A DNA stretch of 64,000 nucleotides from a virus. The first letter of the stretch is position 1. Every line of letters starts with the position of its first letter. Shown here piece after piece: positions 24,901 through 45,174 of the stretch. The DNA lies in IMG/VR virus record IMGVR_UViG_3300027763_000036, positions 49,522 to 113,521 of that record; one strand, 5' to 3'. A program made the position numbers and the translations under genes. Below the pieces are notes generated by a model. The model was not told the DNA's origin, did no database searches, and worked only from the letters and a program-made list of their open reading frames with translations.

Positions 24901-26427
24901 GATGCAGACGGGAATATAATTCTTAGTAAAGAAATAGATCCAAAAACTGGTAAGCCATTTAATGAAAAACAATTTGAAAAAACTAAAAAGAAATACAAGT
25001 ATGATTTCTTAGTTCCTTTATATAGAGAATCTGTACAAGAAGAAATAGATAAGTTGTTTGGTAAAAAAGAAGGTAAACTTGCCCCGGGAGCTAAGAGAAC
25101 TTTATCACGTAGATATAGTTTATTTAGAAGTGCTTTAGAACAGATTACTGATGAGGAGAGTAAAGCAAACATAGATAAAATTAGAAGAGCTGAAAAACTT
25201 ATAAATGATGCTGTTGAGAAAGATGGAATAATTATACCAGATGATATTGCTAATCTACTTGCACAAAAGAAACAAGCACTAAGAGCTTATACGGGTAAAG
25301 AAGTTATTAAAAGTATAATTAAAAAATATAAAGAAGATTTATCTGACACAGAGAAAAAAGTAAAAGATCAAAAAGAAGCACTGGAAAAAATAACTAGTAA
25401 TATTTCATTTGATGATATAGATAAATCTAAACTTGAAGATGGTACTGATTTCATAGAAGAGCAATTAGCAAAAGATAAAGACTTTGCATTTTACTATAAA
25501 AAGCATGATGACTTTAAGGAAGAAGATTCTAAAGATGCTGCTGAAGTTCAAAAATTAACTATCTTAACAATGAAGGCATCTAGATTATTAACAGATCAAG
25601 ATATAGAAGATGACTTAATTGATGAGCTTACAATGGCTGATGCTTCTGAGTTAATACATGAAGGAGTTAAAAGAATTCAGTATTTAAAAACTGAAACTAC
25701 AGATAATAAAACTCTCAAGGAATTAAAAGATTATCAATCCAAAATTTCTTTGCTTACTAGAACAATAGGCCTTAATACAAATAATCTTAATATTTTAGAG
25801 ACTCTTGAAGCAGCAGAGTTTAATGCAGAACAAGGACTTATGGATCTAGCTTATGAGCAGATATCTAAAAAAATTCAGAATCTTGAGGATGAGTTAAATA
25901 GAAACTATACTAAACCAAGTCGTAGGACAGATATTAATAAAGAGCTTGTTAATTTTAATAAATTCAAAGAAGCACTAGCTCTTGCTTATGAGATACCAAT
26001 AGATATATTTGAAAATATAGTAGAAGAAGAGGAGGAAGTAATAGAAGATGAGTATGATAATGTAATTAAAGTAGGGGATACAGTTTATTCTAGAACTGGT
26101 ACTGATACAACACCATATACAGTAAAAGAAATTACTCCTAAAAATTATATTCTTAAAGATCCAAAAGGTAAAGAAATATCAGTTGAAATTAGTAAATTTG
26201 ATGAACAATACATAACAGAAAGTGAGATGAATGCTGGTGAAACTACACCTCCGGGATACAATCCTACAGAAGGTGAAAAATCTGTAATGCAAGAAAGCCA
26301 AATGTCAGTAGATGATTTCTTAAGAAAAGCTGAAGAAGATAAGGCTAAAGCTTACCAGGAAGGAGTTAGCAATACGCTTGCTCAAAATAGAGAGAACTTA
26401 TTAAATAAAACAAAAGACTGTCCATAA
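18931..26427 (+). CDS. Giant virion ejection protein with PD-(D/E)xK nuclease-like domain
   Basis: 2498 aa. Hydrophobic/Gly-rich segments and 'EGIQENLQE' in the N-terminal third; 'IAGEIDLILVDKDGIYVLDIKSG...YTLQTAGY' (about 24590-24760) is a RecB/Cas4-like nuclease motif set. Single Cys, penultimate residue. Confidence 0.7.
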   Translation: MAEQELFDPLDPLGPEYGRINQPIPDAKGLSAFEGDLIDMPKANIPTRNESFFPSIANIENLNRPNREIKHNLVKTNAVNPSIPKKPIDINQYNKSTSQYIQSFFQANQDKNNYAKIYSYNAGPDGNAFYKRYAAYGQKKFDEVGFSPLRDNEANFNANTTKWENFSTMMAHSFIPLFTRGFVSGPKSLGKMLTGDFTSGDLEDARAYEEAAAIGNSSKGGIFGFVNNTVMNFGYTAGIIGEAVAEEAAGALLAAPTGGSSLIATTANNLLKIPKLFKGLNSAKKGYDAVRKTLKLTESVSGARNFWNAARSSEFLKSSVQALNPLENTMHAFRGFKQADNLTDMAILSKTAGGFYRDVRKINMALSEARLEAGMVENHVYDKLYNEAYIANNNEVPNNKELAEIEKQAKDASYETLLENTALIYVSNGITFHNITGPKGGIRNFIKSTTDDIYDIASREGSKNFGKIGKVVYDRAAKKFAIEKNNLKTLAKGWLKNPVYKSVGNTVGYFKANFTEGIQENLQETIAEANERYFLDSYKSPTLQTMLYSRAAMRAINRDKLDYFSESWAEQNPFTAKGAETFASGFFMGTLAGPLNSAVPFLSSNWNRMFHKEQYQKWKEAQTTVAQNLVSQLNDMDLGTFMSEEMQNLGAQDLVGALRARENKKAGLDSEVESYISQVQKLKNTGTFGIFKEKLEGLKELTDEEFADAVNIDLEKVPKYRTRIDKSIARLDKIKGLYERVEKKFPNPISNIDDLDKNDPNYEEKKLLGNAWNLATRNMVFFNETYDDILERRAKIDAKFNSNPKFQKIDNKQRNLLFNPLVPEGQFSKDSGDMVEEIDILKKELALEKELGKNSNKIKGLEEKIKITTDYVEKFKNFDLFFNRSGYIEKYAEDIKKATGKDATSEEIMEYMDSDLGGSLDENNPTGQRIISELRDSYKNYLKTLGKQKGEDIFSEDLDLTFEALMDYYKLGHEKVNIAKYVELFNDSDAFLDIVRRNTDWMRVQNGRRVKYFEDLIRSEMDKVRANALLNSLADKGLYMSLEDMGNYMNNGIPPKEIFNNITKEIYRIGDPKYAEIYQEYFQKNDDLKSDLNPRKTGILDDAYQKQIDDFEAKKQEEIDKLEKKPTRRETGEVKGKDRNKTFSATEASNQLANNEYVELKINKDSEPIVLFKDAEGNIHMDDVDGELVDVRDIKDRFLEGKRYVVEMLPDPLEVERITNVYNAKIEGVFKAYAADKDSVDLEVPYEEVTQESNLNTPDLIDFRNSLYVAYQEEYVENLSAEQQEALLEDSDLDQETFEKWYSLPENKKYFDEYNNENRPAISEKETVLSVNGVTVDTKNRTLEQLFEIRNTLADKLTIANEDIELLDDETEKEEKKQAQKVIDALALDLKNLNVIIAARQFAKYPEEIKDSVRSIQKLFKAQDKVERVTLTEDDEVTGLKKGQKAYRVNGKIHRRMTQAMHDVIDQKYEYKGQEDVDTVFNQTIGKNGLNPASAKEFVDRLRILAEDDKKLPGTNKIFFDKLQDQLLVLPSRTVEQIKLENQKSEILTKADKEKDAAKKEALYEQAVEIQNKIDGVTAPVSTDAKADIERKSGESVKDFMERLFSNNYFTEVSGKQIFSLTQGRWGVIVNIDGVQVPFYQSTSGTDTKVKGQWYPFFGDQGNWVIKGNSDDSNIGYGFKAIQDVQSFLNNNIKETDAIALSGIISKEVLQNQSSLRMLDESKIKGNEKISLNKEATAERLASVAGYSLEEGRKTKSDSELFQLASKKIFAELASLGTAETVAKDNFDIATKKNGIKDITDVFFAEQSYQDGRDAGDFFDLAKDYLESGKKPEFNENIITREAYDNLIGVLDPIKSKIESGELYIVGRDLVVYDSDIDLGNDRRDRIAGEIDLILVDKDGIYVLDIKSGEASKFLNFNNLSSKQKIFSKRNEYTLQTAGYATMLERMIDRRVAGLAMLPIQRASNKETNQVIEVKKPINPDLYEEINYKRDADGNIILSKEIDPKTGKPFNEKQFEKTKKKYKYDFLVPLYRESVQEEIDKLFGKKEGKLAPGAKRTLSRRYSLFRSALEQITDEESKANIDKIRRAEKLINDAVEKDGIIIPDDIANLLAQKKQALRAYTGKEVIKSIIKKYKEDLSDTEKKVKDQKEALEKITSNISFDDIDKSKLEDGTDFIEEQLAKDKDFAFYYKKHDDFKEEDSKDAAEVQKLTILTMKASRLLTDQDIEDDLIDELTMADASELIHEGVKRIQYLKTETTDNKTLKELKDYQSKISLLTRTIGLNTNNLNILETLEAAEFNAEQGLMDLAYEQISKKIQNLEDELNRNYTKPSRRTDINKELVNFNKFKEALALAYEIPIDIFENIVEEEEEVIEDEYDNVIKVGDTVYSRTGTDTTPYTVKEITPKNYILKDPKGKEISVEISKFDEQYITESEMNAGETTPPGYNPTEGEKSVMQESQMSVDDFLRKAEEDKAKAYQEGVSNTLAQNRENLLNKTKDCP

Positions 26428-29400
26428 TGATAACATGTAGCATTAATAATATTGAAATTGTAAAGGCTTTATATGCAGATGTAAGTGGTGCTCTAAAGAA
26501 AGCTCAAGATTCTAAAAAAGACTTTGATCATAAGGACTATATGAAAAAGTTATTCAAAGATCTTTCTGAACAATCATCACCAGAAGTAGCTGCTAAATAT
26601 TTACAGTCTGTACCAAAAATAATCATTGATGCACAAAACAATTATTTTGAAGATCTTTTTGTTAATCTAAATGCTTTAAGTAAACTAAATCAAGATTTTA
26701 AAAATTCTGACACAGGTGTCACAGCTGTAATTAAAGAATTAGGTGATACTTCTAATCTTGGTGAAAAAAAAGATAATTTACAGAATAAAAAAAATAATTC
26801 GATTAATTTAAATCAAAATCCTGTAGCACCAAAACCAGTAGTAAGATTACCACAAAGATTTAGAACATTAACTCCTTTTGGTGGTACTTTACAATCTTAT
26901 ATTAAGATTGATCCAAATTTAAAAGAACAATCTATTACTCCTGAAAGTATAAATCAGGAGTTACTCTATATGATTAGAACCTTTGATAAGATTAAAGAAA
27001 TTCAAAATACTACTGATACACTTAATGGAGTTGTTTATGATGGAGTAAAACTTCACTTTAAGTCTATTACTCTTAGTGCATATGATAAGCCTGAAAATCA
27101 AAAATATTTAGATGCAGATACTAAAGCTTTAATTGCTAAATCAGCAAGTATAATTAATCAAGGTACAGCTCCAAAAGATGTTGTTCAAATAACTGAACTT
27201 CCTATACTTTTATTAAGTGATATAGATGGTAATGTTCTTTATTTTGATAATAATGGAAACATAACTACTGAAGATTCTGGTAAGCCAGTATATCAGTTTA
27301 TGAGAACTGTTAGAAAAGATGGAAATACTTTTTCTGTTACTAATAGATATAATACTGAAGACTTACTAATTACTCCTGAAGATTTTGCAGATGCAACATA
27401 TGATGAAGCTATAGATGGTCCAAAAGATAAATATTTAGTATCTGTAAAAGAAATGATGCAAAAAGAAATGTCAGACTTATATGACATTCAACAAAGAGTA
27501 ATTTCTGGACAAGAGATGATACTTCCTATTACAGGAATTAGTAATGGTATACCCGCAAATTTGTCTGCTACAAAAATAACTTTGAGCAACTTATTAAATT
27601 TGCCAACACTAAATGCAAATCCTATTGGTGTAATTAAAACAATTAGAACAATACCTATTGCACAAGATGGATTTAATACTGGTTCAGCTTTTATTCAGTT
27701 GAATGGTAATAAATTTTTTATTGAAAGACCTTTAATAACACAAGACTTAGCAGTTGAGATTGCTGATGTTTTAACTAATCCTAATATTTCTAATGCTGCA
27801 AAACAAGAATATACAGATCAGTTTTTAAAGGGATACTCCACAAATAATTCAAGTAAAAAATTTACCTTAATATATTCTAAAAATGGTAAATCAATTTACT
27901 TTAATATGTTTGAAAAGTTTTATCAAACAGATCCAAAAGATATAAAAGAAAAACTAGACTTACACTCCTCATATTTAAAAACATTAGATCAATCACAAAT
28001 TGATAAGTATAAGGAAACAATTATAAAGTATTTAACTAAAGAAGGGACTAAAGCTAATCAAGGAAGAATAAATATAATATTTCAAAATGCAGCTTTAGAG
28101 AGTGGTAAGTACACAAGGTTAAATGATGCTGGTACTGGATTTAATAGAAATGCTGATTATCATACTTTCCTTACAACTACAGATTCTGAAATTTCTTTAA
28201 CTAATGCTGATCCTGGATTCTATAATTATGTAGTTAATTTTACAACATTTGATACACCTGTTGGAGAGTTTATTAATGCTGAGAAGAATGAAAAAGATTC
28301 TAAGCTTATAGATGCTGAGTTAAATAGAGTAATTGGAAATGCATTATCAAACGAATATAAGGCTAAAGTTAAACAAGAAGATCCTACTCAACAAAGACCT
28401 TATGATAGTTTTTTAGTCACTAGATACTTAAGAGATCAGATATCTACTGTCTATAACAAATCACAGAGCAAAACTTTTGTGCAAGGTCTTATAGATGCAT
28501 TAAAGGGTCCGTTATATAGTTACTTGCATTTACGTGACGCACAAATAAAGATTCTTCAGGACAAATTAAATATAACTAATTTCCAAACTGTTACACCTGC
28601 ACCAACTGCTAAGCCTCCTGTTCAAGAGGAAATAGTAGATGTAATAGAAGTTCTAGGAGCAGAATCTCCACAAGACAATACTGTAGTTAATAGAATATTT
28701 AATGAAGATACTACAGAAGATGATAGTATATTTTTTGATAGAGCTGGTATTAAAAAAGAGTTTATTAATCCATTAAAAATTGTACAAGCTAAGATATGGT
28801 GGAATAGTAAAAAAATGGAGCCAATGAGAAAACTCATAGAGTTTGACCGTATGCTTAACATTGTAAACTCAGATAGTTATGCAAGATTTATTGTAGCTGG
28901 AGCTACTCTTGCTGACACAGGTACATTAGGTACTATATTAGTTAATAAAGAGAAAGGTACAGTATTTCAAAACCTTACAATTTATCATGAGGCATGGCAC
29001 GTATTCTCTCAGTTGTTCTTAACTAAAAAACAAAAGTCAGATTTATATAACGAGCTACTCAATTATACAGATGCTAAAGGAAATACTCCTTATGCAAAGA
29101 TGAGTCTTAGAGAATTAGAGGAGATGCTTGCAGAAGATTTCCGTAACTATGTTAAAACAGGTAAAGCAAAACAAGGTGCTCAAAAAAGAAATAGTTTATT
29201 CAGAAAAATAGTTGAGTTCTTAAAACAACTATTTGGTAAAGTATTAAAGAAATTTAAAAAACAAGAAATTGTAATTAATAGTCTTAACTCGCCAATGGCA
29301 GCAAGATTATTTAATGAATTATACATAGGAGAATTTAATAAGTATTCTCCTAGTATAACTAATCAAATGTTTACTAAGCTAGATAGAGGACCAAGACAAA

Positions 29401-32400
29401 TTGAATATCCATCACAAGATGCACTATCTCCTGGAGATGGTATGACAGTGGTATCTTCTATTGATAATTTCTTTGCTGAAGAAGTAGATAAATTATATCA
29501 ACAAAGAAAAGCTAAAGGAGAAGACAGAAAAGAAATTAGCTTATCTGTAATAAAGAGTCCTGCACAAAAAGAAGAGTTATATAAGAGAGCACGCAAAAGA
29601 TTTGAAACTGTTCTTGCTCAAGAGCAAGCTAAACTTAGAGCTGTAGAAGGCATAGCAGATTTCAATACCTTAGATACTTTAGAAGAGATTGAAAGCAATG
29701 CTTTTGCTATAATGAAAAATGAGGTATATGACAAAGAAGGAAAGTTGATCCCGGAGAAATCAGGAAAAGACAAATATTTCTTTTTAACATCTCAGGTTAC
29801 AAACTTTGATAATCTATCTGCTTCAACTAAAAAAGGAGAAAGAGTAAGGGGAGAAGACTATAAAGATACTATTAGAATTGTTGGTGATTTTTATAAGCAC
29901 AAAACAATTAAGAAAGATGGAAGAAGCATAGATATTGTTTTAGTAACAAGACCTCAAGATGCACAAACCCAATTTGATAACTATCTAAAAGGAAATGTAT
30001 GGGATGAATCATCTAAGAAATGGATTCAAGATGCAGGTGGTGCAAAAATCTTTACAAGAATTGAGAAAAAACCTATAGTAGATAAAGCTAAGATAGATCA
30101 AACTCAAGAAGAGATAAGAGATAATGTAAGAGTATTAGAAACTACTCTTAAAAACTGGGGTGATGAGAAGAGTGGTATTGTACAATACCATATGCAAAAT
30201 ACAGACTTTGATGTTGCTAAAAGAAGATATAGTGTTGATGGAGAATTACTTCCTGAGATAGAAGAATTAAAAGAAGATAGTAAAGGTGAGGTAAAAGATG
30301 AATCAGAAAAAGACCTAGAAAATGACGGAGGCTTAGGACAGGGTAATGAAGGTACTGGAGATGTATCTTTACAACAAACAATGAGCAAAGAAACTATATT
30401 TGTTTTAAAGACATTGTTTAAAGTAAACTCTGATGGTACTATTCCAACAGATAGATTTGGAATTAAACAAAGAGCGGATTTTAGTAAAACATTTGCTATA
30501 GTTGCAAAAACTATTGGTGGTATTCGTGATAGACAAAAGGCTTATGAAAAATTAAGATTAGAGTCTGAAAAGTTTCCAGAGCTAAAACAATTGTTTGAAA
30601 CTAAGTTTCCTAATCCAAATAAGTCAGGAGCTACTGTTAATACATTTGAATTTGACTTAGCTAGAAACTTTTTCCAAGATTTTGGTAAACCACATATTGA
30701 TTATTTACAACTCTATGGTTACTATGATAAAGAAGTTGTAAATGATGCAGAAAGATATAACCTAAACTTTGTAGTAAAAGAATCTGACTTAGCAATAGAT
30801 AACTTACTAAATAAATGGTCAAACAACTTTGCAACTCTTAAGGGAAATAAATATATCAATGTATCAAGAGATAATATAAGAAGTTTAAAGTTAGCTGACG
30901 TTGTAAAAGATTTTAAATCAAAATCAACTAGTGAATTAGATTTAGCTAAGCAAATTGAGTTTGCTAAAGTATTGGGTATTGAGCTTCAGAATAATGATAA
31001 TGTTAAATCTGAGCTTGAAAGATCTGCATACTATGGTTTACCGTACATATTCAAAATAGTAAATTCAATAAATAATATTGAGCAAGGGTCTGTTGAAAAA
31101 GCTTTATCTAAAGAAAAATCTAGACTTGTAAGTAACTTTAAAGAAAACCCACTTAAGGTTTTAACAGATGGTTTTAGTGGATCTTTAATAGGTGATAAGG
31201 GAACCGTAAAACAATTAACTCAGTTAAAAAGATTAGCAGAGTTACAAACTACATATGGTTATGATAGTTCAAGTACTGCTATAATTAGATCTAACCAAAA
31301 CGTTGGTTATAAGGAAGTTAACTGGAGTTCTGGTCATGCAAGAGCATATGCATTAAATGAAGTAGAGAATTTTAATCAGCTTTGGGAAGATCCAAGATAT
31401 AACTACATGTCACATCTTAATCCTGAGATAAACACTCATGTTAGACATTTAAAAATCATATCTTCTTTATTCCCTAATTTAGAAAAGAAAAGTGAAAATA
31501 CTTCAGTAAAATTCTTTGCACAAGATGGATTTGCCATTACAGATGAAAGAGGTGACAGTAGTGGTAATACAACTACTGAGTTAGATCCATTATCTAAATT
31601 TATATTTGAATTTCATTCATTTAGTTTAGCTGGTGTAGCTGAACTACCAAGAACATCTGAAAAGAAATTCTCATGGGGCTTTAAAGTAGACGGAGGTATA
31701 AACCATCCAGATGTTAATTTTGAATCTGCAAAAGATCCAAATCTATATATTGACATTGACATGTTCAAAACTGTAGCTGGAGAACAATACGCAAGAGCTG
31801 GGTTTTTATATGGATATATTCAAGGTGAGTTTGATAGAATTAAAAAGTTCAGAGGTCCAGAAAAAGAAAAGTATTTAAACTTTACTGGGTATAATGAGCC
31901 TGTAATTGAAGATGGTGAAAAAATGTTTTCCGGACAAACCTTTGTAGCATTCAAAGGGGTGTTAAGTGAAGGAACAAAAAAGAGGTTATACGCATTAGCA
32001 GATCAACAAGCAGACATAGAAATCTTAGACTATGTTAAAAATGTTGATAAAGAACTTGGTAAAATGATCAAGGATGATATAACAACATTCTTCAATGAAA
32101 AAACAAATGAGATTAAAGAACTTTACTTTAATAAAATTCCTTACATATCTAGATCATTACTTGAGAAGTTTGGTATAGATAAGGAGTCTCTTAAAGATGA
32201 AGAAGTATTTAAATCTTATTTAGCAAAACCAGAGATCGTAAATGCTTTACTTAAAGCTTATACATATAATGACTTTATCCATAAATATGAGACAAGCATT
32301 ATTATGTTTGGAGATCATGCTCAATGGAATCACGGAAAAGAGGATTGGTCAAAAAGAATTCCTGGACTTACTTCAGATGGTATTGGTTTTATGTTTGATA

Positions 32401-35400
32401 ATCAAACTCAAAACTTTATAAATGATGTATTCAATAAAGAAACATATGCTTCTAAATTAACTGAGAAAGAAGGTAATAAAATAAACTATAATACTTTTCA
32501 GTTTAGTGAAAAAATGAATGCAGCAGTTATAAAAGATGCTGAAAGAAGTTCTATATATGTTGATGATTATGAAAAAATGTGGGAGAAAGACTATCTAAAA
32601 AGATTTAGTCCAGAAGTTGCAAAAGAAAAAGCAGCAGCAGATGCTAAGCCCTACAGAGAAATGAAAGAGTCAGATGGTATTGCATTTGTCACATTAGATG
32701 CATACCGAACACTTAAGAAAGTAGGAAGAGGTTGGAGTTTGGGTGAAGATGCACTTTATAAGAAAATTATAAATGGTGAAGAAATATCAAGTAAAGATGT
32801 AAAAGAGTTCTATTCTATTTTCAAGTTACATTATTTTGGAACAATAGAAAATGATTTATTACCTGTGACTGGTATGTTTAAGTTTTCGGTTATGCCAATT
32901 ATACCTGGAGTAAATGCAATTCCAGGTAATGAGCTTGATAAGCTTCACAAAAAAATGATGAGACAAAATACTCAGCTTGTTTTGTTTGCATCCGGTTCAA
33001 AAGGGTCACATATAACTTCAGATGGTAAAACAGATAATATTTATACTAATAAAGAAGATAAATATATTAATACTGAAGTAGATGAAAAAGGTAATGATGT
33101 ATTTCAGTTTACTAAAAATCCATTCTACTTAGCTAACTTTAAAGAGGTTACTGTAATGAATAACTCTTTTAAAGAACATCTTCCAATAGCTACACAAACA
33201 AGAGCTATTACAATAGATAATTTATTTGAAGATGGAGATTTAAAAAATCCAGACAATAAACCTTTTGTAGATGAGTACACAAATACAATCCGTGAATACT
33301 CTAAAGTATTAAAAGAAGATTTATTAAATGGATTAGGAATTGAGCTTATAGATGGTAGAGTAATTGGTGACTTTACAAGGTTTGTTGAGATTATTAGGGA
33401 TGAGATGTCTCAAAGAGATACCCCACCACATTTAATTAAACTAGTAAATACCAATCTTAAGGGACAAATTGCAATGGATTTATCATTGCATCCTGAATCA
33501 GATAGTATTGAAAAATTACTTGTTAGTTTAATTCAAAGAGGAGTTATTAAACAACAAACTAAAGGTGAGCCATTAGTTCAATCTCCAGCAACATTTACAA
33601 ATGGTATTTGGGATACACCATATTTAGATCTTACAGAATTAAAAGAAATACAAAAGTATTTAGGAACTAATACTCTTCCTTTCTATTTAGCAAATGGAGA
33701 AACTAGAACTGAAGAAATGAAAGTTGCTATTGCCTTACAAGGAGACTTTAGAAACTTACTTAATGCTAATGATCTAGAAGGAAATAAGATTGAGACTATT
33801 GAAAGATTAAATCAGTTGATAAAGAATCCTAAGTGGTTTGCAAAAAATAAAAAGTCATTAACATTGTTCGGGCCTAGAATCCCTAATGATGCACATAACA
33901 CTATTGAGGCAGCTACCGTTTGGCATTTCTTACCAGAGTCATTTGGTAATACTATTATTACACCAACTGAGATTGTAGCAAAAGCAGGTTCTGACTTTGA
34001 TGGGGATAAGTTATTTATGTCCATGCCTAATATAGACAGTGAAGGAAACTTTATTAATAAAGGAGTAGAAAACTTTGACAAAGTTTTAGAAGAGACTAAA
34101 GAACTTGAGAAGAAAAAGAAACTTCCTAAAGATAGACCTACTTCTAAACAGATAATTGAACTACAGAAAAAGTATTTACAGAACAGATACTTACAAGCAT
34201 CTGTAGAAATATTAATGCTTCCTGAAAATGCTATAACATTAACTAAGCCTAATGGTACATATCTAGTAGATAGATATGAGGAAAATGTAACAGAATTTAG
34301 AACAGGATATGATAAGTTTAAAAATGTTGGTGGAAGACCATCTGATGTAAACACAAAAGGTGTAAAGATTCCAAATACGTCAAACCATTTTACAGCAGGA
34401 TATAACCTTTATGTACATGATGCAAACTTATCACTTGAACCATCACTAGGTATTTTAGCAAAACTTACCAAGTCTATTCCTATGTATAAAGCTGCTGGTG
34501 CAAAAATGCCAGCAACATATAATGCAGGTATCACACTAAAGGTTCCATTAGATGTTAGATTTAATAAGAATATTACAGTAAATTCTAAAGGTGAAACTGT
34601 TATATCTATTGGTGCTGAAAATAATGTGGCTGGTGAAAATATTTCTGACACAACTTCTCACTCATTACAAGGGGTATTGGATAGAGCTAAAGCTACATTC
34701 CCATTTGAATTAAAGTTGGTTCCAGAAGCAATGGATGTTTATGGTTATCTAACAAGAGCAGGGGTAGATCAAGAACAAATAGTTTACTTGCTTAATCAAC
34801 CACTAGTATCTCAGTATCTTGATTTACAAAAGATAAATGAGTCTTCTATAAACAATGCTTTGTTTGGAAAGCAGAAAAAATTTATGATTTCTCAAAATTT
34901 GTTTATTGAAAATCTTAAGAAGACTTTAACTGAAGATCAATTAAAAAGGCTGGTTCTTGAGATAAATAAAAATAAACTTGCCGCTATAATGAAATCATTA
35001 CCTGAAGACTTAGAACTTCAAGTAATTATTCCTCGTAAAGAGGGTGTTTATACTGTGGCTGCTTTAAGAAATCAATTAAATGCTTTTGTAAAAACTGGTG
35101 AAGGAATAAATCCTAATTCTATTTCATCTATTTTGATAGAGTTACCGGATGAAACAAAAAAAGAAATTTATAGTTATGTTGTTCCTACTTTTGATAAAGC
35201 TGGATATTTATTGAGCCAAGGAAATGCATATTTCTTAATTGATTATATTGCAAAAAACAAACTTGCTAATAAAGATGAAATTCAAACATCTGATTTGGTA
35301 GATATAATGAAGAAACAAGATTCATCTAGCTTAAAAGCACTGATGATCTTTGCACATTATGTTGAATTAGAGAGACAGTATTCAAGAATGAATGATCTTG

Positions 35401-38400
35401 AAAAATCATTTACTCCGGATACTGCAAAAGTTTCTACTACTCAAGAAGCAATAATTAGAAAGAAAAAATATAAAACTTTCTTTAGTGCAATACAAACTAA
35501 TGTTCCAGAATATTTAAAACAATCAGAAGAAATAGATCAAGATTTCTTAAATAAGTTAATGAATGAATCTGTTGTATCTTCATTAATATTTGATGATTTA
35601 ACAATTGATTTATTAAAACCATTATTTCAAACTAAACTTGATGATGTCATTGTTAATTATATAGATGATGCATTAAAAGAAAATAGAGGAGAAATTTCTA
35701 ATGCTTTTGGTGTGGGTGCTGATGGAAGAGCTGAGTTCATAAGACAGTATGGAAATACTTTAGTAAACTTTATATATCAAAACTATTTATCATATTCTTC
35801 TGATGCAACTGGTAAGTTAGCAAATTATCCAGAAGCAATCAATGGTAAAGAAGTAGTGGTAGATAATACTATGGATGTTCTTGTAAAAATTGAAGAAGAT
35901 AAAATTCTTATAAACACTAGAATTATTGAATTTGATTTTGCAAATAAATCTTTCTTGGAAAATAATGATACTGAAGCAGCTTATGTAAACAGAAATTATG
36001 ATACTTTTAAAGTAGGTCAAGATCCATTTAAAAATCTAAGATCTTTCTATAGATATCATATTGAGTTAGCTCTATTAGAAGAAAATAATTCAATAGACAC
36101 ATTAGCAGATAGTGAATATTATTATTTTGGACAAATGGTTGCAAAAAATGATGGTAATATAGAACGAGCATATATTCAGTATATATCTGAAAGAGCACTA
36201 TCAAATAGTTATAACCCATATTATATCATGGGTAGAACTAAATATAGTTATACCAACAACGTATTAGAGTTAATTGATTCATTGGAAAATTACCCAGCAC
36301 TATTTGATAGATTCCCAATCCTTACTCAAATTTCTCCACAAAGAAACAGAGAAGGATTTAGAATAATTAGATTGAATAATAGATCAGATGTAAAAGGAGC
36401 ACTAGCTCAAGACTACTACAATCAGATTAGACAGCTTGGAGATATCTCTATCCAAAAATTAGATAACCCAAGTAACAATCCTGTAATTACATCTAAGGAT
36501 AAAAGAATAAGTGAGATATTTAATTTATTCTCAATCATGATGTACTATCAGCATGGTGTAGGTAAATCAGGAACAAGCTTTAATAGTGCTTTAGATTCAT
36601 CTCAATTTAAAGATATTATCATGCCTTCTACACAGGCGTTTATGGGTAATTACATTAATCCAAGTAAAACTTCTAGAGAAGAAATACAATCATTATTAAA
36701 TGCTGTATATCAACAAACTGTTTCTAGACAGAGGTTTAAAATAATGTTAGGTACTAAGAATGAATATGCAAATGCAGACATAGAAGCTATAGCAAATGAA
36801 CTTGATAAAAAAAGAACAGAAGGAGAAATAGAAGAGTTTGATGAGGATGAAGGTTCACAAAAGATTCCTTCAGAATTTAAAAAAGGTGAGAAACTTATTT
36901 TAGATGAAGATGTTAAAGCATTTAAAAGATATTTGATATCATCTAATGGAGTTAAGCCTTCTAAGTTTACAACTGTACAAACTAAGTTTTCAGAGTTCTA
37001 TAATGGTAGACAACAGGGTATGCCAAATACTGCTGCCTGGATGCTTAATAGCTCTAATCTATATGACATGGTAGAAATAAGTCAAGACTCTGACTTATTA
37101 GGTATTGTATACTATGAAAATGTAGATCTAGAAACAGGATACCAAATGATTAAAAAGGGTGAGGGTCCTACTCAACCTACTGGAGTTAAAGAAGTTATTA
37201 AAAATGAAAAAGGACTGATTATAATTAATAATGCAATTCCTTTACAAAAAACTCAACAAATAGTAAATGATAGTAAAAAATTTATAGAAGAAACTTCTTT
37301 TAAACAAACAGGTGGTTCAGTATCTTGGGGTTATGGAATGCAATGGATAAGATCAGCCGGATTAACAGCAAAACAAAAAGAAGGTGTTGTAATTGGTAAA
37401 CAGATAGGTGGTCAAGAAGTAACTCAAGAAATGGTAAATGATCTTATTGCTGGAGTTGACCCTAAAAAAATAAAAGGTTTACCATTATATGTATATACTA
37501 TTTATGACAAAAATGGTAATAGGTTACCTAATATACCAAGTGACATAATACTAACATTGCAAGAACAAGGAATTGATTTATCTCAATATGATGCTAGTTA
37601 TAATTCTGTATATGATAAGAATGACAAAGGTAGTTTAATTGTACATCAAGATAATACTGAGTTTAATACTTCACCAATTATTACTGTTTCTTTGGGTAGA
37701 CCAATGAAATTTATTACATATCAATTAAAAGATTCTAATAATTATAGTTTTGGTACTAATTCTAAAAATAAATATGAATTAACCTTAAATACTATTTCTA
37801 ATAAACTTGTATCTCAAAAGCTTGCTCCTGAATTAAAAAGACAAAAAAATTTTAGAGGTGATGAAGTTATAGCATATGGTGAATTAACTCCTGGAAATTT
37901 AGCTAAATATGCTAAAATGGTAGGAATGGAATCTGAAGCATTAGATGTTTTAGCAAATTCAATAGAAAAAATTGAAGAACATATGTTAACAAATGGTGCA
38001 GTTTTAGTTTTTTCTAATGAAAATAGAAATGTGTTTCATGAGATTATTTTTGATGAGGAAACAGATAAATTACCAATGCCTCAAGGTTTTCCTGATTTAA
38101 CAATAAATAAATCTTATACAGGGATGGGCAGACCAGATAAAATGGTTAATACAAGAGATTATAGGGTTGTATTAACTTTAAGAAAAGTAACTGGTGCTAC
38201 TGTTAATAATATTGATATACAAAAACTTACATCTACTCAACCTACTAAAACACTTACTACTCAAGATTCTGAAAACATATACTCTCAATTAGGCACTTTA
38301 ACTTCAAATATTGTCATATCCAATATAAAAACTAAAGATGGTAAGTATGATAGGACCGCTAATATAAAAGAAGCAAAAGTTAAAGGTAGAGTGTACACTA

Positions 38401-39743
38401 TGGAAGTAGATAGTGATGTAAAAAGCTTCTCAAATCCTTGGGCTAGTTTTAATAGAAAAGGAACAATTAAAACAAATTCTACAAAAGAAGCTGTTTTAAA
38501 TTACATTGATTGGCTTACTACAGATAAATTTATAAATGTTAAACCAGAAAGAAGAGCTTTTATTTTAGATATTTTAAAATCTGGTAAATTAAAAGGAAGA
38601 CAACTTCAATATTATGCTGAATTAGGAGAGCCATCTCATGCTACAGCTTTAGATTATTTAATTAATAAATATAACTGGGGGCAACCTACGTCAACATCTA
38701 AAACACCAGTATTTGATTCTCTTCCTGGTAAATCTACTACACCTACTATGACTTATGCTGGTATAGGAAGTAGACAAACACCACAAGAAGCTCTTGATCT
38801 TATGCCTCAAATTGCTAAGTATCTTGATAATTTAGGTTATACATTAAGAAGTGGTGCAGCAGAGGGTGCAGACACAGCTTTTGAAAAAGGTGCAACAAAA
38901 AAAGAAATATTTAAAGGATTTGACAGAACAGGTCAAAGAGAAATAAATGTTGCTAATGAAATACATCCTGATCTTCAGGGTGCTATGAATGCATCTAAAT
39001 CTAAAAAAATAAAATCAAGATTAGCTGAAGGTGCAACACAAGAAGAAGCTGAAAAATCAGGTGAAAGATCTGCATGGGCTGTTCAAAACTTAATGGCAAG
39101 AAATACTAATCAAATATTTGGTGTTAATTTAGATACACCGGTAGATTTTGTATTGTTCTGGGCACAAGAAATTCCTGGTTCAATTAGACCAAAAGGTGGT
39201 ACAGGACAAGCTGTAGAAATGGCTAGAAGAAAAGGTATACCTACTATTAATTTAGCAGATAAAAATTGGAGAGAACAACTTAAAGCTGTACTTTCTAATA
39301 AACCATCTACTCAACCTACTGAAGTTAAACCAGGTGGAGAACAATCTTCTATCAATGATGACATGGCTGAGTACACTAAACTTGTTGAACAAAACAACGG
39401 AGCTCAACCAAAAACATTTACTGTAGGTACAAGAACTTGGACTCTTAATAAATTTGGTAACTATGACTGGTCTGACCCAACAACTGGGCAAATCTACATG
39501 AGAAACATTAACATGGAGACTGGAGTAGCTGTACCTGAACCATTAATGAATGAGCCTGTAGATCCGGCATTAGTAGAAGAAAGCTTAAACTTTATAAATA
39601 GTAATAGAAAATTATTAGCTTTGGATCATAAACTTGCTGATATGGGTATTGATATAAATGATTTCCTTAAGCAAGTAGAGCAAATAAAAACAATGGAAGA
39701 TTATTTCAAAGCTAAAAAAACAATAGATAAGTTATGTCAATAG
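26427..39743 (+). CDS. Giant virion-packaged single-chain (two-barrel) RNA polymerase polyprotein with zincin and C-terminal accessory domains
   Basis: 4438 aa. HEAWH...EEMLAEDF zincin (28986-29000); 'GPRIPND' and 'AGSDFDGDKLF' (DFDGD at 33993-34007) as in crAss-like/phi14:2 vRNAP. C-terminal AlkB-like, DUF4326-like and SLOG-like domains. Confidence 0.88.
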   Translation: MITCSINNIEIVKALYADVSGALKKAQDSKKDFDHKDYMKKLFKDLSEQSSPEVAAKYLQSVPKIIIDAQNNYFEDLFVNLNALSKLNQDFKNSDTGVTAVIKELGDTSNLGEKKDNLQNKKNNSINLNQNPVAPKPVVRLPQRFRTLTPFGGTLQSYIKIDPNLKEQSITPESINQELLYMIRTFDKIKEIQNTTDTLNGVVYDGVKLHFKSITLSAYDKPENQKYLDADTKALIAKSASIINQGTAPKDVVQITELPILLLSDIDGNVLYFDNNGNITTEDSGKPVYQFMRTVRKDGNTFSVTNRYNTEDLLITPEDFADATYDEAIDGPKDKYLVSVKEMMQKEMSDLYDIQQRVISGQEMILPITGISNGIPANLSATKITLSNLLNLPTLNANPIGVIKTIRTIPIAQDGFNTGSAFIQLNGNKFFIERPLITQDLAVEIADVLTNPNISNAAKQEYTDQFLKGYSTNNSSKKFTLIYSKNGKSIYFNMFEKFYQTDPKDIKEKLDLHSSYLKTLDQSQIDKYKETIIKYLTKEGTKANQGRINIIFQNAALESGKYTRLNDAGTGFNRNADYHTFLTTTDSEISLTNADPGFYNYVVNFTTFDTPVGEFINAEKNEKDSKLIDAELNRVIGNALSNEYKAKVKQEDPTQQRPYDSFLVTRYLRDQISTVYNKSQSKTFVQGLIDALKGPLYSYLHLRDAQIKILQDKLNITNFQTVTPAPTAKPPVQEEIVDVIEVLGAESPQDNTVVNRIFNEDTTEDDSIFFDRAGIKKEFINPLKIVQAKIWWNSKKMEPMRKLIEFDRMLNIVNSDSYARFIVAGATLADTGTLGTILVNKEKGTVFQNLTIYHEAWHVFSQLFLTKKQKSDLYNELLNYTDAKGNTPYAKMSLRELEEMLAEDFRNYVKTGKAKQGAQKRNSLFRKIVEFLKQLFGKVLKKFKKQEIVINSLNSPMAARLFNELYIGEFNKYSPSITNQMFTKLDRGPRQIEYPSQDALSPGDGMTVVSSIDNFFAEEVDKLYQQRKAKGEDRKEISLSVIKSPAQKEELYKRARKRFETVLAQEQAKLRAVEGIADFNTLDTLEEIESNAFAIMKNEVYDKEGKLIPEKSGKDKYFFLTSQVTNFDNLSASTKKGERVRGEDYKDTIRIVGDFYKHKTIKKDGRSIDIVLVTRPQDAQTQFDNYLKGNVWDESSKKWIQDAGGAKIFTRIEKKPIVDKAKIDQTQEEIRDNVRVLETTLKNWGDEKSGIVQYHMQNTDFDVAKRRYSVDGELLPEIEELKEDSKGEVKDESEKDLENDGGLGQGNEGTGDVSLQQTMSKETIFVLKTLFKVNSDGTIPTDRFGIKQRADFSKTFAIVAKTIGGIRDRQKAYEKLRLESEKFPELKQLFETKFPNPNKSGATVNTFEFDLARNFFQDFGKPHIDYLQLYGYYDKEVVNDAERYNLNFVVKESDLAIDNLLNKWSNNFATLKGNKYINVSRDNIRSLKLADVVKDFKSKSTSELDLAKQIEFAKVLGIELQNNDNVKSELERSAYYGLPYIFKIVNSINNIEQGSVEKALSKEKSRLVSNFKENPLKVLTDGFSGSLIGDKGTVKQLTQLKRLAELQTTYGYDSSSTAIIRSNQNVGYKEVNWSSGHARAYALNEVENFNQLWEDPRYNYMSHLNPEINTHVRHLKIISSLFPNLEKKSENTSVKFFAQDGFAITDERGDSSGNTTTELDPLSKFIFEFHSFSLAGVAELPRTSEKKFSWGFKVDGGINHPDVNFESAKDPNLYIDIDMFKTVAGEQYARAGFLYGYIQGEFDRIKKFRGPEKEKYLNFTGYNEPVIEDGEKMFSGQTFVAFKGVLSEGTKKRLYALADQQADIEILDYVKNVDKELGKMIKDDITTFFNEKTNEIKELYFNKIPYISRSLLEKFGIDKESLKDEEVFKSYLAKPEIVNALLKAYTYNDFIHKYETSIIMFGDHAQWNHGKEDWSKRIPGLTSDGIGFMFDNQTQNFINDVFNKETYASKLTEKEGNKINYNTFQFSEKMNAAVIKDAERSSIYVDDYEKMWEKDYLKRFSPEVAKEKAAADAKPYREMKESDGIAFVTLDAYRTLKKVGRGWSLGEDALYKKIINGEEISSKDVKEFYSIFKLHYFGTIENDLLPVTGMFKFSVMPIIPGVNAIPGNELDKLHKKMMRQNTQLVLFASGSKGSHITSDGKTDNIYTNKEDKYINTEVDEKGNDVFQFTKNPFYLANFKEVTVMNNSFKEHLPIATQTRAITIDNLFEDGDLKNPDNKPFVDEYTNTIREYSKVLKEDLLNGLGIELIDGRVIGDFTRFVEIIRDEMSQRDTPPHLIKLVNTNLKGQIAMDLSLHPESDSIEKLLVSLIQRGVIKQQTKGEPLVQSPATFTNGIWDTPYLDLTELKEIQKYLGTNTLPFYLANGETRTEEMKVAIALQGDFRNLLNANDLEGNKIETIERLNQLIKNPKWFAKNKKSLTLFGPRIPNDAHNTIEAATVWHFLPESFGNTIITPTEIVAKAGSDFDGDKLFMSMPNIDSEGNFINKGVENFDKVLEETKELEKKKKLPKDRPTSKQIIELQKKYLQNRYLQASVEILMLPENAITLTKPNGTYLVDRYEENVTEFRTGYDKFKNVGGRPSDVNTKGVKIPNTSNHFTAGYNLYVHDANLSLEPSLGILAKLTKSIPMYKAAGAKMPATYNAGITLKVPLDVRFNKNITVNSKGETVISIGAENNVAGENISDTTSHSLQGVLDRAKATFPFELKLVPEAMDVYGYLTRAGVDQEQIVYLLNQPLVSQYLDLQKINESSINNALFGKQKKFMISQNLFIENLKKTLTEDQLKRLVLEINKNKLAAIMKSLPEDLELQVIIPRKEGVYTVAALRNQLNAFVKTGEGINPNSISSILIELPDETKKEIYSYVVPTFDKAGYLLSQGNAYFLIDYIAKNKLANKDEIQTSDLVDIMKKQDSSSLKALMIFAHYVELERQYSRMNDLEKSFTPDTAKVSTTQEAIIRKKKYKTFFSAIQTNVPEYLKQSEEIDQDFLNKLMNESVVSSLIFDDLTIDLLKPLFQTKLDDVIVNYIDDALKENRGEISNAFGVGADGRAEFIRQYGNTLVNFIYQNYLSYSSDATGKLANYPEAINGKEVVVDNTMDVLVKIEEDKILINTRIIEFDFANKSFLENNDTEAAYVNRNYDTFKVGQDPFKNLRSFYRYHIELALLEENNSIDTLADSEYYYFGQMVAKNDGNIERAYIQYISERALSNSYNPYYIMGRTKYSYTNNVLELIDSLENYPALFDRFPILTQISPQRNREGFRIIRLNNRSDVKGALAQDYYNQIRQLGDISIQKLDNPSNNPVITSKDKRISEIFNLFSIMMYYQHGVGKSGTSFNSALDSSQFKDIIMPSTQAFMGNYINPSKTSREEIQSLLNAVYQQTVSRQRFKIMLGTKNEYANADIEAIANELDKKRTEGEIEEFDEDEGSQKIPSEFKKGEKLILDEDVKAFKRYLISSNGVKPSKFTTVQTKFSEFYNGRQQGMPNTAAWMLNSSNLYDMVEISQDSDLLGIVYYENVDLETGYQMIKKGEGPTQPTGVKEVIKNEKGLIIINNAIPLQKTQQIVNDSKKFIEETSFKQTGGSVSWGYGMQWIRSAGLTAKQKEGVVIGKQIGGQEVTQEMVNDLIAGVDPKKIKGLPLYVYTIYDKNGNRLPNIPSDIILTLQEQGIDLSQYDASYNSVYDKNDKGSLIVHQDNTEFNTSPIITVSLGRPMKFITYQLKDSNNYSFGTNSKNKYELTLNTISNKLVSQKLAPELKRQKNFRGDEVIAYGELTPGNLAKYAKMVGMESEALDVLANSIEKIEEHMLTNGAVLVFSNENRNVFHEIIFDEETDKLPMPQGFPDLTINKSYTGMGRPDKMVNTRDYRVVLTLRKVTGATVNNIDIQKLTSTQPTKTLTTQDSENIYSQLGTLTSNIVISNIKTKDGKYDRTANIKEAKVKGRVYTMEVDSDVKSFSNPWASFNRKGTIKTNSTKEAVLNYIDWLTTDKFINVKPERRAFILDILKSGKLKGRQLQYYAELGEPSHATALDYLINKYNWGQPTSTSKTPVFDSLPGKSTTPTMTYAGIGSRQTPQEALDLMPQIAKYLDNLGYTLRSGAAEGADTAFEKGATKKEIFKGFDRTGQREINVANEIHPDLQGAMNASKSKKIKSRLAEGATQEEAEKSGERSAWAVQNLMARNTNQIFGVNLDTPVDFVLFWAQEIPGSIRPKGGTGQAVEMARRKGIPTINLADKNWREQLKAVLSNKPSTQPTEVKPGGEQSSINDDMAEYTKLVEQNNGAQPKTFTVGTRTWTLNKFGNYDWSDPTTGQIYMRNINMETGVAVPEPLMNEPVDPALVEESLNFINSNRKLLALDHKLADMGIDINDFLKQVEQIKTMEDYFKAKKTIDKLCQ
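37168..39329 (+). repeat. Dispersed direct repeat CTACTCAACCTACT (encodes TQPT) at 37168-37181, 38233-38246, 39307-39320; degenerate CAACCTAC at 38682-38689
   Basis: Read directly. Copies 1 and 3 share 22/23 nt (CTACTCAACCTACTG[G/A]AGTTAAA); copies 2 and 3 share 17 nt exactly (CATCTACTCAACCTACT). Confidence 0.85.
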
Positions 39744-42700
39744 GTAGTTGTCCAAATGTAAATAGTCAAGAATGGAAAGATATACTTGAACTAAATAATG
39801 GTAATGTTGAAAGAGCCAGAGAAGAATGGGATCTTCTTTATGGTTTTGATCAATCATTAAATAGTGATCCAGATTTATCTGATATTCCTGTAGAAGTTTT
39901 TGAAGATGAAACTGTAGATGAATTCATAGAAGAGCCAACTTTTGATAGAGCTCTTAAAAAAGTAAAAATCTTTTTAAAGACAAAACAATATGAACTAAAT
40001 AGAAAAAAAGTTCAGAATCAAAAAGCAAAACAAGCGGCATTAGCAAGAATCATTAAGAACTTAAATGAACTTGAAGGAGTAGAAGCTATTAATGCTTTTA
40101 TTGAACATGCTTATACAGAAGGCATGGAGACAAGAAAGCTATTAAATGAAGCTCTAAAAAGAAGTAGAGAAGGAACAATTGATAGTAAAGAACTTTTGGA
40201 TATCTTGTCTGCTGCTAATCAGTTTGCTAATGGTTATAGTATATTAGATGAAATAAGCAAAGAAGATATTGACAGATACTTTTCTAAACCTGTTGCATCA
40301 AATAAACCTGAGTCAGAATTAACACCTCAAGATAAATTAACAAGAGCTATTGCTAATAGAAATAATATTAGAACAGTATTTGATGAAAAAGTAATAGATG
40401 TAATTGCTGAGACTCTAGTTGATTATAGATCTACAAGAGGTACATTAACTATTCAAGAAAATATAAAAGCTTTTGAAGAAAGAATAGAAAATGCTAGAAA
40501 TGATACATCTTTAACTGATAAAGCAAGAGCAAGAGTATTAGAAAATAATGAGAAGCAACTAGCAAAGTGGAAAGCACTTATGTTAGATAAAGAATCATTA
40601 GGTAATTTGTTAAGAGAAACATCTAAGAATGAAAATATATTTGATGCTTATCTTAATCCATTAATAAGTTCAGGAGATGCTCCTTTATCTTTATTTGCTA
40701 AGATGATTAAAACTCAGTTTGAAAGCACAAAAGTTGAAGATATCCAAGAAAGAAATCAAGGTGTAGACCAGCTTAAAGAATTTGCTAGTAAAACAGGTAG
40801 GGGTTTTAGTAATGTTGCAAAATTAAATGAAGGCTTATATGAGTTTTTGGAGATTGCAAGAAGAGATGTTAGAGGTAAAGTAATTAGAGATCCAAAAACA
40901 GGTGAGGTAGTTATTGATAAGGTAGTTTCTTTTGTTCAAAAATATGACATGAACAAATATCAACAAGCTGAACGAGAGTTTTATAAAAATAATCCTAAAC
41001 CAAAACTTAAAGAAGATGCATCTGATATAGAAAAAAAGCAATATAATGATGCATTGGATGATTGGTATAAAACAAGAAACAGATGGTATAAAGCTAATAC
41101 ACAGCCCAAGTCTCAAGAAGAGATAAACAAAATAAAAAATGAGAAAGAAAAAGATTATATTCAAGGTATTATAACAAATGAAGAATACCAAGAGTGGTTA
41201 AAACGCGTAGAGCGTGATACAAAAAGGGGTAAAGAATTTTATGGGGAGCTTGCAGAACCTAATAATAGTTACTTAAATAATAACTGGTTAAATTTATATG
41301 ATAAAGACGGCAAGCCAAAAAATGCAGAAGGTTTGTATCACAAATATCTTGTAGATAAATATCTTGCTGCTCAAGAATTATTACCGGATGGTCAGAGAAG
41401 AGGATACATATTACCATCTATAGAGATGGATGAAGCAGAAAGACTACAAAGATTTGGTGTAAAAGCTACTGTTAAAAGTAGAGTCTCTGAAACATTTAGA
41501 AGAAAGAAATATGATCAAGAATTATTTGGAGAGGAAGCTGGTCAAACAGAAGAGATAGATAGAAATGTTTATGGTGTAGGTAGTTCTTCAGGGGAGAAGT
41601 TTGATATTATCCCAACTTACTTTACACAATTCATGGATGCTGATGATGTTACTGTAGATTTATTATCTTCAGTTTTAAGGTTTGATGCAATGGCTAGAAG
41701 ATACAATGCATTAAATGAAGTTCAGTCAGAGATATATGCTTTCCAAAAAGTAATTGGTAATAGAAAGATTGCTGCCAAAGACAGTAAGGGTAGACCTGTA
41801 ATGGATGCTTTTGCAAAGAAGATGGGTTATGAGGAATACATAAAAGAAAATGGAATGGATTATTCATCTTTTCATGTTAATGAGTTTATTAATATGGTTA
41901 TTAAAGGTGAATCACAAAAATCACAGCAATTTATGAATGTAGAGTTATCTAAAATAACTAATACATTAATTTCTGTATCTGCAATTACTACTCTTTCAAT
42001 GGACTTACTCAAGGGTGTTGCTAATAATTTACAAGGTAATATTCAGCTTGTTATTGAATCAGCTGGTTCTGAGTTTTTTAGTTTAAAGAATTATGGAAAA
42101 GCCAAAGCAGTTTATTTATCTAAAGTTGGTGGATGCATATCAGACTTTGGTAAGCCATATGCAGAAAGTTGGTTAGGTGGTTTAATTGATTACTATGATG
42201 CTATACAGGGTCAGTTTAAAGATGAATACGGTAGAGATGTTTCTGCTACTGTAGCTCAAAAACTTTTCAGAACTAATACTCTTTTCTGGAATCAGCACTT
42301 TGGAGAACATGAGGTACAAGTTACAGCCATGTTAGCATTAATGGATGCTACAAAAGTTATTGATAAAGAAACTGGAAAAGAAATTTCCCTACTTCAGGCG
42401 CATGAAAAATATGGAACATTCTTATTTGATGTTGTTACAGATGAGAATGGTAATAAAACTAAAAACTATAAAGTTCAAATTAGAGCTAACAAGACATTAG
42501 AAAACCCAGAAGGTGATCTTATAGATTTTGATGAGAAGCAAAGAATAGAACACACAAATATACTACATGCATTAAATAAAAGAATGCATGGTGTATACAA
42601 TGACTTTGATAAATCAGTACTTCAGAAATACTCTGCTGGTAGATTAGTAATGATGTATAGAAAGTTTATGGTTCCTGCTGTAAAAAGAAGATACAAGAAT

Positions 42701-43503: not shown

Positions 43504-43888
43504 ATGATTGGTTTATAAATTTACTAAGATTTGGTTTAAAATACTCGGGTCCTTTTAATATTTTTCCATCTTCTCTAAGAATAGGTTGTCCGTCTGGACC
43601 CAACTTACTCATGTTACTAGCTTGTATCTCATTGAAGACATCTATTATTATATCTTGCATACCATGTTTTAGAATAGTACCGCAGAGAATATATAACTGA
43701 TCTCCAAGAGCATCACCTATTTCTACAAGAGAGTTTTTCTCACAAGCTTCTAGGTATTCATCATTTTCTTCTTTCATTAGAGCATGTCTTAACACATACT
43801 CGCTCTGCTCAAGTGGTTGTGGCCACTTACCATCTTTTTGTTTGAATGCTTTGTGGAACTCAGCCACAGCTTTTAATTGTTCTTTCAT
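43478..43888 (-). CDS. MazG-like / PRA-PH family all-alpha NTP pyrophosphohydrolase
   Basis: EENDEYLEA...EIGDALGD, 'SNMSK', 'DGKILKGP' motifs. Confidence 0.85.
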   Translation of the reverse strand: MKEQLKAVAEFHKAFKQKDGKWPQPLEQSEYVLRHALMKEENDEYLEACEKNSLVEIGDALGDQLYILCGTILKHGMQDIIIDVFNEIQASNMSKLGPDGQPILREDGKILKGPEYFKPNLSKFINQSYEKKQNEN

Positions 43889-43899
43889 GTTGTAAAATT

Positions 43900-43931
43900 A
43901 AAAAAAAAGGGGACAACTTGCGTCATCCCCT
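43900..43931 (-). terminator. Intrinsic terminator (GCAA tetraloop)
   Basis: Minus strand GGGGATGAC-GCAA-GTTGTCCCC followed by a T run. Confidence 0.75.
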
Positions 43932-43963
43932 CTCTTATACTTCAAAATTGGGAATTGAAGGTC

Positions 43964-45172: not shown

Positions 45173-45174
45173 AA

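Follow-up and report, generated by a model that had tools for sequence, protein, structure and literature searches.

Paired cysteines at the facing termini of giant cargo proteins point to a probable disulfide clasp in crassviruses

The 64,000-nucleotide stretch of DNA analysed here (the window) covers positions 49,522 to 113,521 of the IMG/VR virus record IMGVR_UViG_3300027763_000036 and represents the right-hand 64 kb of this 113.5-kb record, which is 97% complete. It encodes three consecutive giant proteins, designated A, B and C, which by homology are the counterparts of crAss001 gp47, gp50 and gp49, the cargo module of crassviruses. These proteins are almost devoid of cysteine except at the termini that face a neighbouring protein of the module, and this arrangement was found to be conserved across the order Crassvirales. 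We consider it probable that A, B and C are joined end to end by a disulfide clasp at each of the two junctions.

Five cysteines were identified in the 8119 amino acids (aa) of A, B and C (0.06%), versus 1.31% in the remaining phage proteome (346 of 26,471 aa). At the proteome rate, about 106 would be expected, corresponding to a depletion of approximately 20-fold (P ~4e-39). Four of them are found among the 24 terminal positions that face a junction, at most 6 residues from the A-B or B-C boundary (P ~3.8e-10; Table 1). An open reading frame check reproduced exactly all the cysteine positions and coordinates that a preliminary description of this DNA had given for A, B, C and a cysteine-free 1040-aa protein encoded upstream. 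A and B share a TAATG junction with a 1-nt overlap, B and C overlap by 10 nt, and the gene of the 1040-aa protein stops 2 nt upstream of A. The sole internal cysteine, in C, is kept in relatives at 63–87% identity (residues 799–800 in loci L003 and L004), and it is gone at 52% identity (locus L007) and in most C-family representatives.

Among IMG/VR relatives at 50–95% identity, A ends in "K-x-C-x" and is followed by a protein starting "MITCSIN", while the second junction reads "KLC" at the stop codon and then "M-L-G-x-C-P"; few other cysteines were observed. Junction 1 varies synonymously among these relatives (TGT/TGC; ACA/ACG/ACT), with P, Q or L as the last residue, and this synonymous variation indicates that selection acts on the amino acid. 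In a wider survey of database proteins, 119 of 120 A homologues (34–94% identity) possessed a cysteine 0–3 residues from the C-terminus and none had one near the N-terminus. This was the only cysteine of the protein in 117 cases, and two internal cysteines were counted in 281,297 aa. B homologues (n = 51) carried a cysteine at residue 3–5 in 50 cases and 0–4 residues from the end in 50 cases, with 12 internal cysteines in 210,633 aa. For C, complete homologues were surveyed, one per 50%-identity cluster (n = 120); 115 had a cysteine at residue 2–8, none had one near the C-terminus, and 31 internal cysteines were present in 190,577 aa. Most of the few exceptions seem to be truncated or to start at a miscalled codon. 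Overall, internal cysteines amounted to 0.007% over 757,519 aa of homologues. When the database proteins were pooled, a cysteine was present at 361 of 371 junction-facing termini and at 0 of 299 outer termini; the Fisher P of ~6e-181 for this contrast is descriptive, since the sequences are related. The two cysteines of a junction co-occur and vanish together: an orphan side was observed in none of the genomes where both sides could be read.

The hidden Markov model (HMM) of the A family, built on the window clade, reaches the A proteins of other families only at the nuclease region of crAss001 gp47, and A proteins outside the clade were therefore assigned by synteny and annotation; record BK010471 was taken in place of NC_024711. 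In the marine phage phi14:2 (Steigviridae), exactly four cysteines are present in 5398 aa and all are terminal: g067 ends in one, the 2180-aa gp66 has them at positions 3 and 2179, and g065 has one at position 3. The corresponding positions in crAss001 are Cys2339 of the 2341 residues of gp47, Cys5 and Cys2404 of the 2412 residues of gp50, which also has one internal cysteine, and Cys5 of gp49. Here gp47 is encoded on the strand opposite to gp50 and gp49, and the latter two genes do not overlap. In Intestiviridae, A ends in "SCM" (p-crAssphage), "TCS" (Rudgehvirus) or "VCS" (crAss002), and after a gap of 130–170 nt the next protein begins with "MSC", "MAC" or "MSC", respectively. The last of these starts is read from an internal ATG in crAss002 gp33 (locus L026, NC_055828, 20200–20298), 32 codons downstream of the annotated start and in an A+T-rich start context, which gives "MSCTPSNP"; the annotated start is probably 32 codons too far upstream. 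Suoliviridae also fit the pattern, and the named phages of three families conform to it.

These phages also bear on the possibility that the terminal cysteines have no function in the protein, being a by-product of nucleotide constraint at gene ends or of relaxed selection at disordered termini. The preliminary description had rightly cautioned that the codon at 39735 (TGT) shares its TG with the ATG of C, so that in the window clade only Cys or Trp can be encoded there. However, the matching cysteine is kept without gene overlap in phi14:2, crAss001, cr118_1 and cr1_1, and the pattern as a whole persists in genes without overlap, with gaps of 130–170 nt and on opposite strands, so that neither gene overlap nor translational coupling can be its cause. 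The cysteine codons vary synonymously, and conservation is 96–99% at junction-facing ends versus 0% at outer ends. We regard an origin without function as extremely improbable. Conservation of the terminal cysteines across Crassvirales, non-overlapping gene pairs included, had been proposed as a test in the preliminary description. Its outcome is strongly positive, and a lack of conservation, named there as a refuting result, is excluded.

Two further cysteine-bearing termini were observed in Intestiviridae. The gp45-like cargo protein has a single cysteine 1–10 residues from its C-terminus (gp47 of locus L025, 8613–11186; gp30 of L026, 9505–11178; gene49 of L021, 4993–7266), and the muzzle protein, encoded upstream of the gp45-like gene, has a cysteine 7–8 residues from its end. 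From their sequences, these may form a further clasp in this family.

The module is not always split into three, and across its split and fused forms one rule was found: a terminus carries a cysteine only if it faces another piece of the chain. Among 28 database proteins in which A and B are fused (4437–4899 aa), none had an N-terminal cysteine and 26 had a C-terminal one, usually the sole cysteine. The A-B fusion also occurs in four Suoliviridae and in cr108_1, where the C protein that follows starts with "MICPN" or "MSIICPN". In fusions of B and C (Rudgehvirus, p-crAssphage, crAss002 and P0322), the N-terminal cysteine is present and the C-terminal one absent, and the A partner retains its C-terminal cysteine. 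Fusions of all three proteins (n = 15, 3953–5388 aa) have no terminal cysteine, and 12 of the 15 are entirely cysteine-free. The genome context of the fused forms was taken from one IMG/VR locus (L024), in which a cysteine-free protein of 5242 aa occupies the whole A-B-C slot after the muzzle gene and two small cargo genes. For a residue-level map of the fused junction in the A-B protein P0350, no significant local alignment was obtained.

The position of the split itself also differs between families. In the window clade a zincin segment belongs to B (approximately residues 845–914), whereas crAss001 carries the homologous segment towards the C-terminal end of A (gp47 residues 2152–2213; i-E 1.4e-15; BLASTP E 4e-9). 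The A-B split is thus upstream of the HExxH segment in the first case and downstream in the second. Within Steigviridae, A and B are split in crAss001 and phi14:2 and fused in cr108_1, and the conserved core of C begins anywhere from 0 to approximately 860 aa after the start of the protein. The differing split sites, together with split and fused forms in the same family, indicate that fission and fusion have occurred repeatedly, with a cysteine pair accompanying each split. Cysteines on both sides of the splits, their absence from outer ends and their joint loss on fusion indicate that each C-terminal cysteine works with the N-terminal cysteine of the next protein. The zincin segment (HEAWH with a downstream E...AEDFR) was also observed in A of p-crAssphage, as in crAss001, and might process the fused forms after entry.

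The same comparison was applied to readings in which the terminal cysteines act singly, for example as a tether to the portal, the capsid interior or the DNA end, in redox sensing, or in a "cysteine switch" that keeps the zincin inactive until entry. In favour of these, cargo proteins need some anchorage inside the capsid, junction 1 has a zincin HExxH motif nearby, and the lone near-C-terminal cysteine of the Intestiviridae gp45-like protein has no obvious partner. Nevertheless, such readings leave unexplained why cysteine never occurs at the outer ends of the chain (A at its N-terminus, C at its C-terminus) and why both cysteines disappear on fusion; the fused forms retain the zincin segment without the cysteine, and the complex model described below sets the two termini against each other. 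We consider single action improbable. The metalloprotease switch was rejected in its own right, as both A-B-C and A-B fusions hold the zincin segment without a junction cysteine. Three other candidates were also rejected. A split intein or trans-splicing would call for Hint/intein domain halves at the joined ends, and no intein family was found in A, B or C; moreover, with cysteines 0–3 residues from the C-terminus and at residues 2–8, there is no room for intein halves. A lipoprotein lipobox does not fit the N-termini "MITCSINN" and "MSIGSCPNVNSQ", in which the cysteine lies at residues 4–6 and no hydrophobic stretch precedes it. Finally, a Zn(Cys)4 knot formed from all four termini was dismissed because families with one fused junction retain exactly two cysteines.

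To model the first junction as a complex, the C-terminal 150 aa of A were paired with the N-terminal 150 aa of B, with an alignment of six sequences for each. The model reached an ipSAE of 0.80 (0.78–0.83 over three runs), versus 0.01 in the best of three controls; this mark is attained by 58 of 80 solved complexes and by 2 of 110 mismatched pairs. The runs share at least 68% of contacts, with partner pLDDT of at least 73. The confident interface comprises residues 94–149 of the A fragment, residue 149 being Cys2497, and residues 4–25 and 42–102 of B, including Cys4. As no solved relative exists, the result is unlikely to reflect memory of a known complex. The model supports docking of the two ends at junction 1 and shows no bond. 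Together with the conservation and the fusion/fission pattern, this confidently modelled interface supports the head-to-tail link put forward in the preliminary description.

In the mechanism we propose, A, B and C would be pieces of what other crassviruses make as one giant ejected polypeptide, in the order gp47-like region, zincin segment, RNA polymerase (RNAP) and gp49-like region. At each split, the new C-terminus and the new N-terminus each bear one near-terminal cysteine. The terminal segments would dock first, after which the two thiols would fasten one piece to the next in head-to-tail order; a disulfide formed once the particle has left the reducing cytoplasm is the most likely bond. 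The outcome would be a thin thread of approximately 8100 aa that acts like the fused form, its pieces being packaged together and exiting the narrow tail in succession, and, with the cysteines within a few residues of the ends, the joint would be slender enough to pass the tail channel. Other cysteines would have been purged so that the unfolded thread makes no wrong disulfides, as in the ejection proteins of N4-like phages, and the cytoplasm of the host would reduce the clasps and set the three proteins free. In more general terms, we give a somewhat better than even chance to a redox-cleavable "pseudo-polyprotein", in which products of 1000–4900 aa would be linked at their ends through single disulfides into a thread of 5000–8000 aa, pulled through the tail as one molecule and cut into working subunits by the reducing cytoplasm of the host, with evolution swapping peptide bond and disulfide at each joint.

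Several points weigh against this proposal. Disulfide formation at the junctions is chemistry that we infer, and the A-B model yields no S-S distance. As phages are assembled in a reducing cytoplasm, a disulfide could arise only at a late stage, and the habitat of gut phages is low in oxygen. The surveys of A and B cover mostly one clade, and their counts are non-independent events; a few complete-looking proteins, such as P0345 and P0296, lack the expected cysteine. Since fused and split forms both exist, a benefit for ejection stays hypothetical.

The main rival to the disulfide clasp is a different link at the same joint, in which the thiols, together with nearby Asp, Glu or His residues or with the carboxylate or amine of the terminus, coordinate a metal ion (Zn, Fe or Cu), or in which another thiol cross-link is formed; the docked termini would then be held already in the cytoplasm. 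Such a link accounts equally well for the split and fusion pattern, and reducing conditions, as in the cytoplasm where the phage is assembled, do not prevent a metal bridge from forming. Acidic residues often precede the C-terminal cysteine ("LLDDLNC", "ELLDDLDC"), as does His in some Suoliviridae ("HCKGE", "IHCIKS"). No thioredoxin match was detected in the window phage's own genome, which favours a metal and counts against a disulfide. Each junction, however, offers two cysteines, with no conserved third or fourth ligand across clades and with flanks that vary freely, and a strict purge of all other cysteines is expected where oxidation is both danger and tool. Disulfides are, moreover, seen in crAss001 virions, at the tail and the portal vertex (PMC10172136). 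We therefore judge the metal or other link unlikely, though the least so of the alternatives to the disulfide clasp. The crAss001 study ran both reduced and non-reduced virion samples for mass spectrometry and did not discuss the cargo proteins in this respect (PMC10172136). Full-text searches of the literature turned up no reference to cysteines in these cargo proteins, PMC10172136 and 10.1101/2020.03.07.982082 included, and no paper describing an end-to-end clasp of crassvirus cargo was found.

The identities of the proteins were established by several searches. The catalytic region of B matches the RNAPs of 75 crass-like records at 24–29% identity (tblastn), and the B-family HMM matches crAss001 gp50 (E 1.2e-111) and phi14:2 gp66 (E 1.6e-133); with its DFDGD motif, the 4438-aa protein had been correctly recognised as a virion RNA polymerase (vRNAP). 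The A-family HMM matches crAss001 gp47 across the nuclease region. C has 2319 homologues in a library of 1.84 billion proteins, with reciprocal phmmer/HMM matches to crAss001 gp49 and phi14:2 g065. Against the phage collection, neither megablast of the window phage nor tblastn of the N-terminal half of B returned a match, and only the catalytic region of B reached named crassviruses; sequence searches of the PDB with A and B gave nothing usable. The features of the module are collected in Table 1.

Table 1. Features of the giant-protein module in the window (positions in the 64,000-nt stretch)
Feature	Position	Strand	Remarks
1040-aa protein, cargo-like	15806–18928	+	Cys-free; no family match; homologues in L009/L011 likewise Cys-free
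Protein A, 2498 aa	18931–26427	+	Counterpart of crAss001 gp47 / phi14:2 g067; lone Cys is residue 2497
PD-(D/E)XK nuclease-like region in A, weak, approximately residues 1880–1970	24568–24840	+	phrog_298 E 6.9e-6; Pfam PDDEXK_1/NERD below cut-off
Cys2497 codon of A, penultimate (KDCP-stop), junction 1 C-side	26419–26421	+	
Protein B, 4438 aa, virion RNA polymerase with accessory domains	26427–39743	+	Cys4 and Cys4437 only
Cys4 codon of B (MITC), junction 1 N-side	26436–26438	+	
HEAWH zincin-like motif in B, residues 854–858	28986–29000	+	
DFDGD catalytic motif of RNA polymerase, B residues 2523–2527	33993–34007	+	
AlkB-like 2OG-Fe(II) oxygenase domain, B residues 3696–3919	37512–38183	+	PF13532, 32.1 bits vs cut-off 31.2
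DprA/SLOG-like domain, B residues 4107–4292	38745–39302	+	phrog_768 E 1.1e-44
Protein C, 1183 aa	39734–43285	+	Counterpart of crAss001 gp49 / phi14:2 g065; Cys6 and Cys801
Cys4437 codon of B, penultimate (KLCQ-stop), junction 2 C-side	39735–39737	+	Overlaps ATG of C
Cys6 codon of C (MSIGSCPN), junction 2 N-side	39749–39751	+	
Cys801 of C, sole internal Cys of the chain	42134–42136	+	

In the C-terminal part of B, relatives exchange the AlkB-like and DprA-like domains for YbiA-like (PF08719), PF18760 or HD/RelA-like (P0168) domains; judged from these domain matches, the C-terminal tail of this virion polymerase is a variable effector rack. The polymerase gene of cr108_1 (locus L020, NC_055878, 20748–21037) is broken inside the catalytic motif, reading "...AKAGSD" and then a stop, and its reading frame resumes after approximately 290 nt of structured-looking non-coding DNA. 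This interruption looks like a self-splicing intron, and the annotated coding sequences gp54 and gp53 are probably a single protein.

Other cysteine-bearing proteins were also observed in this phage. A 770-aa protein (window 13432–15744) has six cysteines at residues 423–505, arranged as C-x-C pairs (483/485 and 503/505), and homologues in L009 and L011 retain the paired cysteines; a metal-binding knot is probable in this virion protein, which is encoded just upstream of the cysteine-free block. Upstream of the window (positions 43595–46024 of the record), an 809-aa protein contains 65 cysteines (8%), the reverse of what the cargo block shows, and two neighbours contain approximately 3%. The composition of the 809-aa protein makes it a likely disulfide- or metal-rich fibre or receptor-binding protein.

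Crassviruses are the most abundant phages of the human gut, and how more than half a megadalton of protein, including an RNAP, passes through a narrow tail is a question raised by the crAss001 structure. If the proposal is correct, a conserved clasp would let the cargo exit as a single thread, with the order fixed and the proteins equal in number, and it would explain how the gene boundaries of the module shift freely between families. The cysteine rule also aids the annotation of giant genes by predicting true start codons, as in crAss002 gp33, and it extends the rule from N4-like phages that ejected proteins lack cysteine by adding an informative exception. The clasp further suggests that the redox state of the host could gate the first step of infection.

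In AB toxins such as diphtheria toxin and the clostridial neurotoxins, the chain being translocated stays attached to its partner by a single disulfide while it crosses a narrow channel, and reduction in the cytosol of the target sets it free. There the chains are produced by nicking one polypeptide and the disulfide closes a loop, whereas the clasp would connect separate gene products at their ends, in a series of three, within the phage head. The closest known counterpart is the vRNAP module of crAss001 and phi14:2, which consists of homologous proteins (a DFDxD polymerase, a gp49-like partner and a gp47-like protein with nuclease and zincin) with the same terminal-cysteine pattern; these proteins were found in virions by mass spectrometry and proposed to be ejected partly unfolded (Bayfield 2023 PMC10172136; Drobysheva 2020 preprint 10.1101/2020.03.07.982082). 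The window phage, in contrast, belongs to a distant, mostly environmental clade; its polymerase is twice as long, with AlkB-like and DprA-like domains, and A and B are split on the other side of the zincin.

N4-like phages (Schitoviridae) also eject a giant vRNAP into the host, and their ejected proteins (vRNAP gp50/gp71, gp72 and gp73) have a cysteine content near zero versus ~0.87% in the proteome, a suppression proposed to reflect their crossing of the oxidising periplasm (PMC11445570). In N4-like phages the polymerase is a single cysteine-free polypeptide, like the A-B-C-fused crassvirus form, and retained terminal pairs are not described for it; the polymerase folds are unrelated, T7-like in N4 and two-barrel in crassviruses. 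Disulfides between separate particle proteins do occur in crAss001, in the tail hub and ring proteins and in the gp57 dimer (PMC10172136). Those bonds stabilise a static structure, whereas the proteins linked by the cargo clasp would be mobile and ejected, and the clasp itself would need to be reversible.

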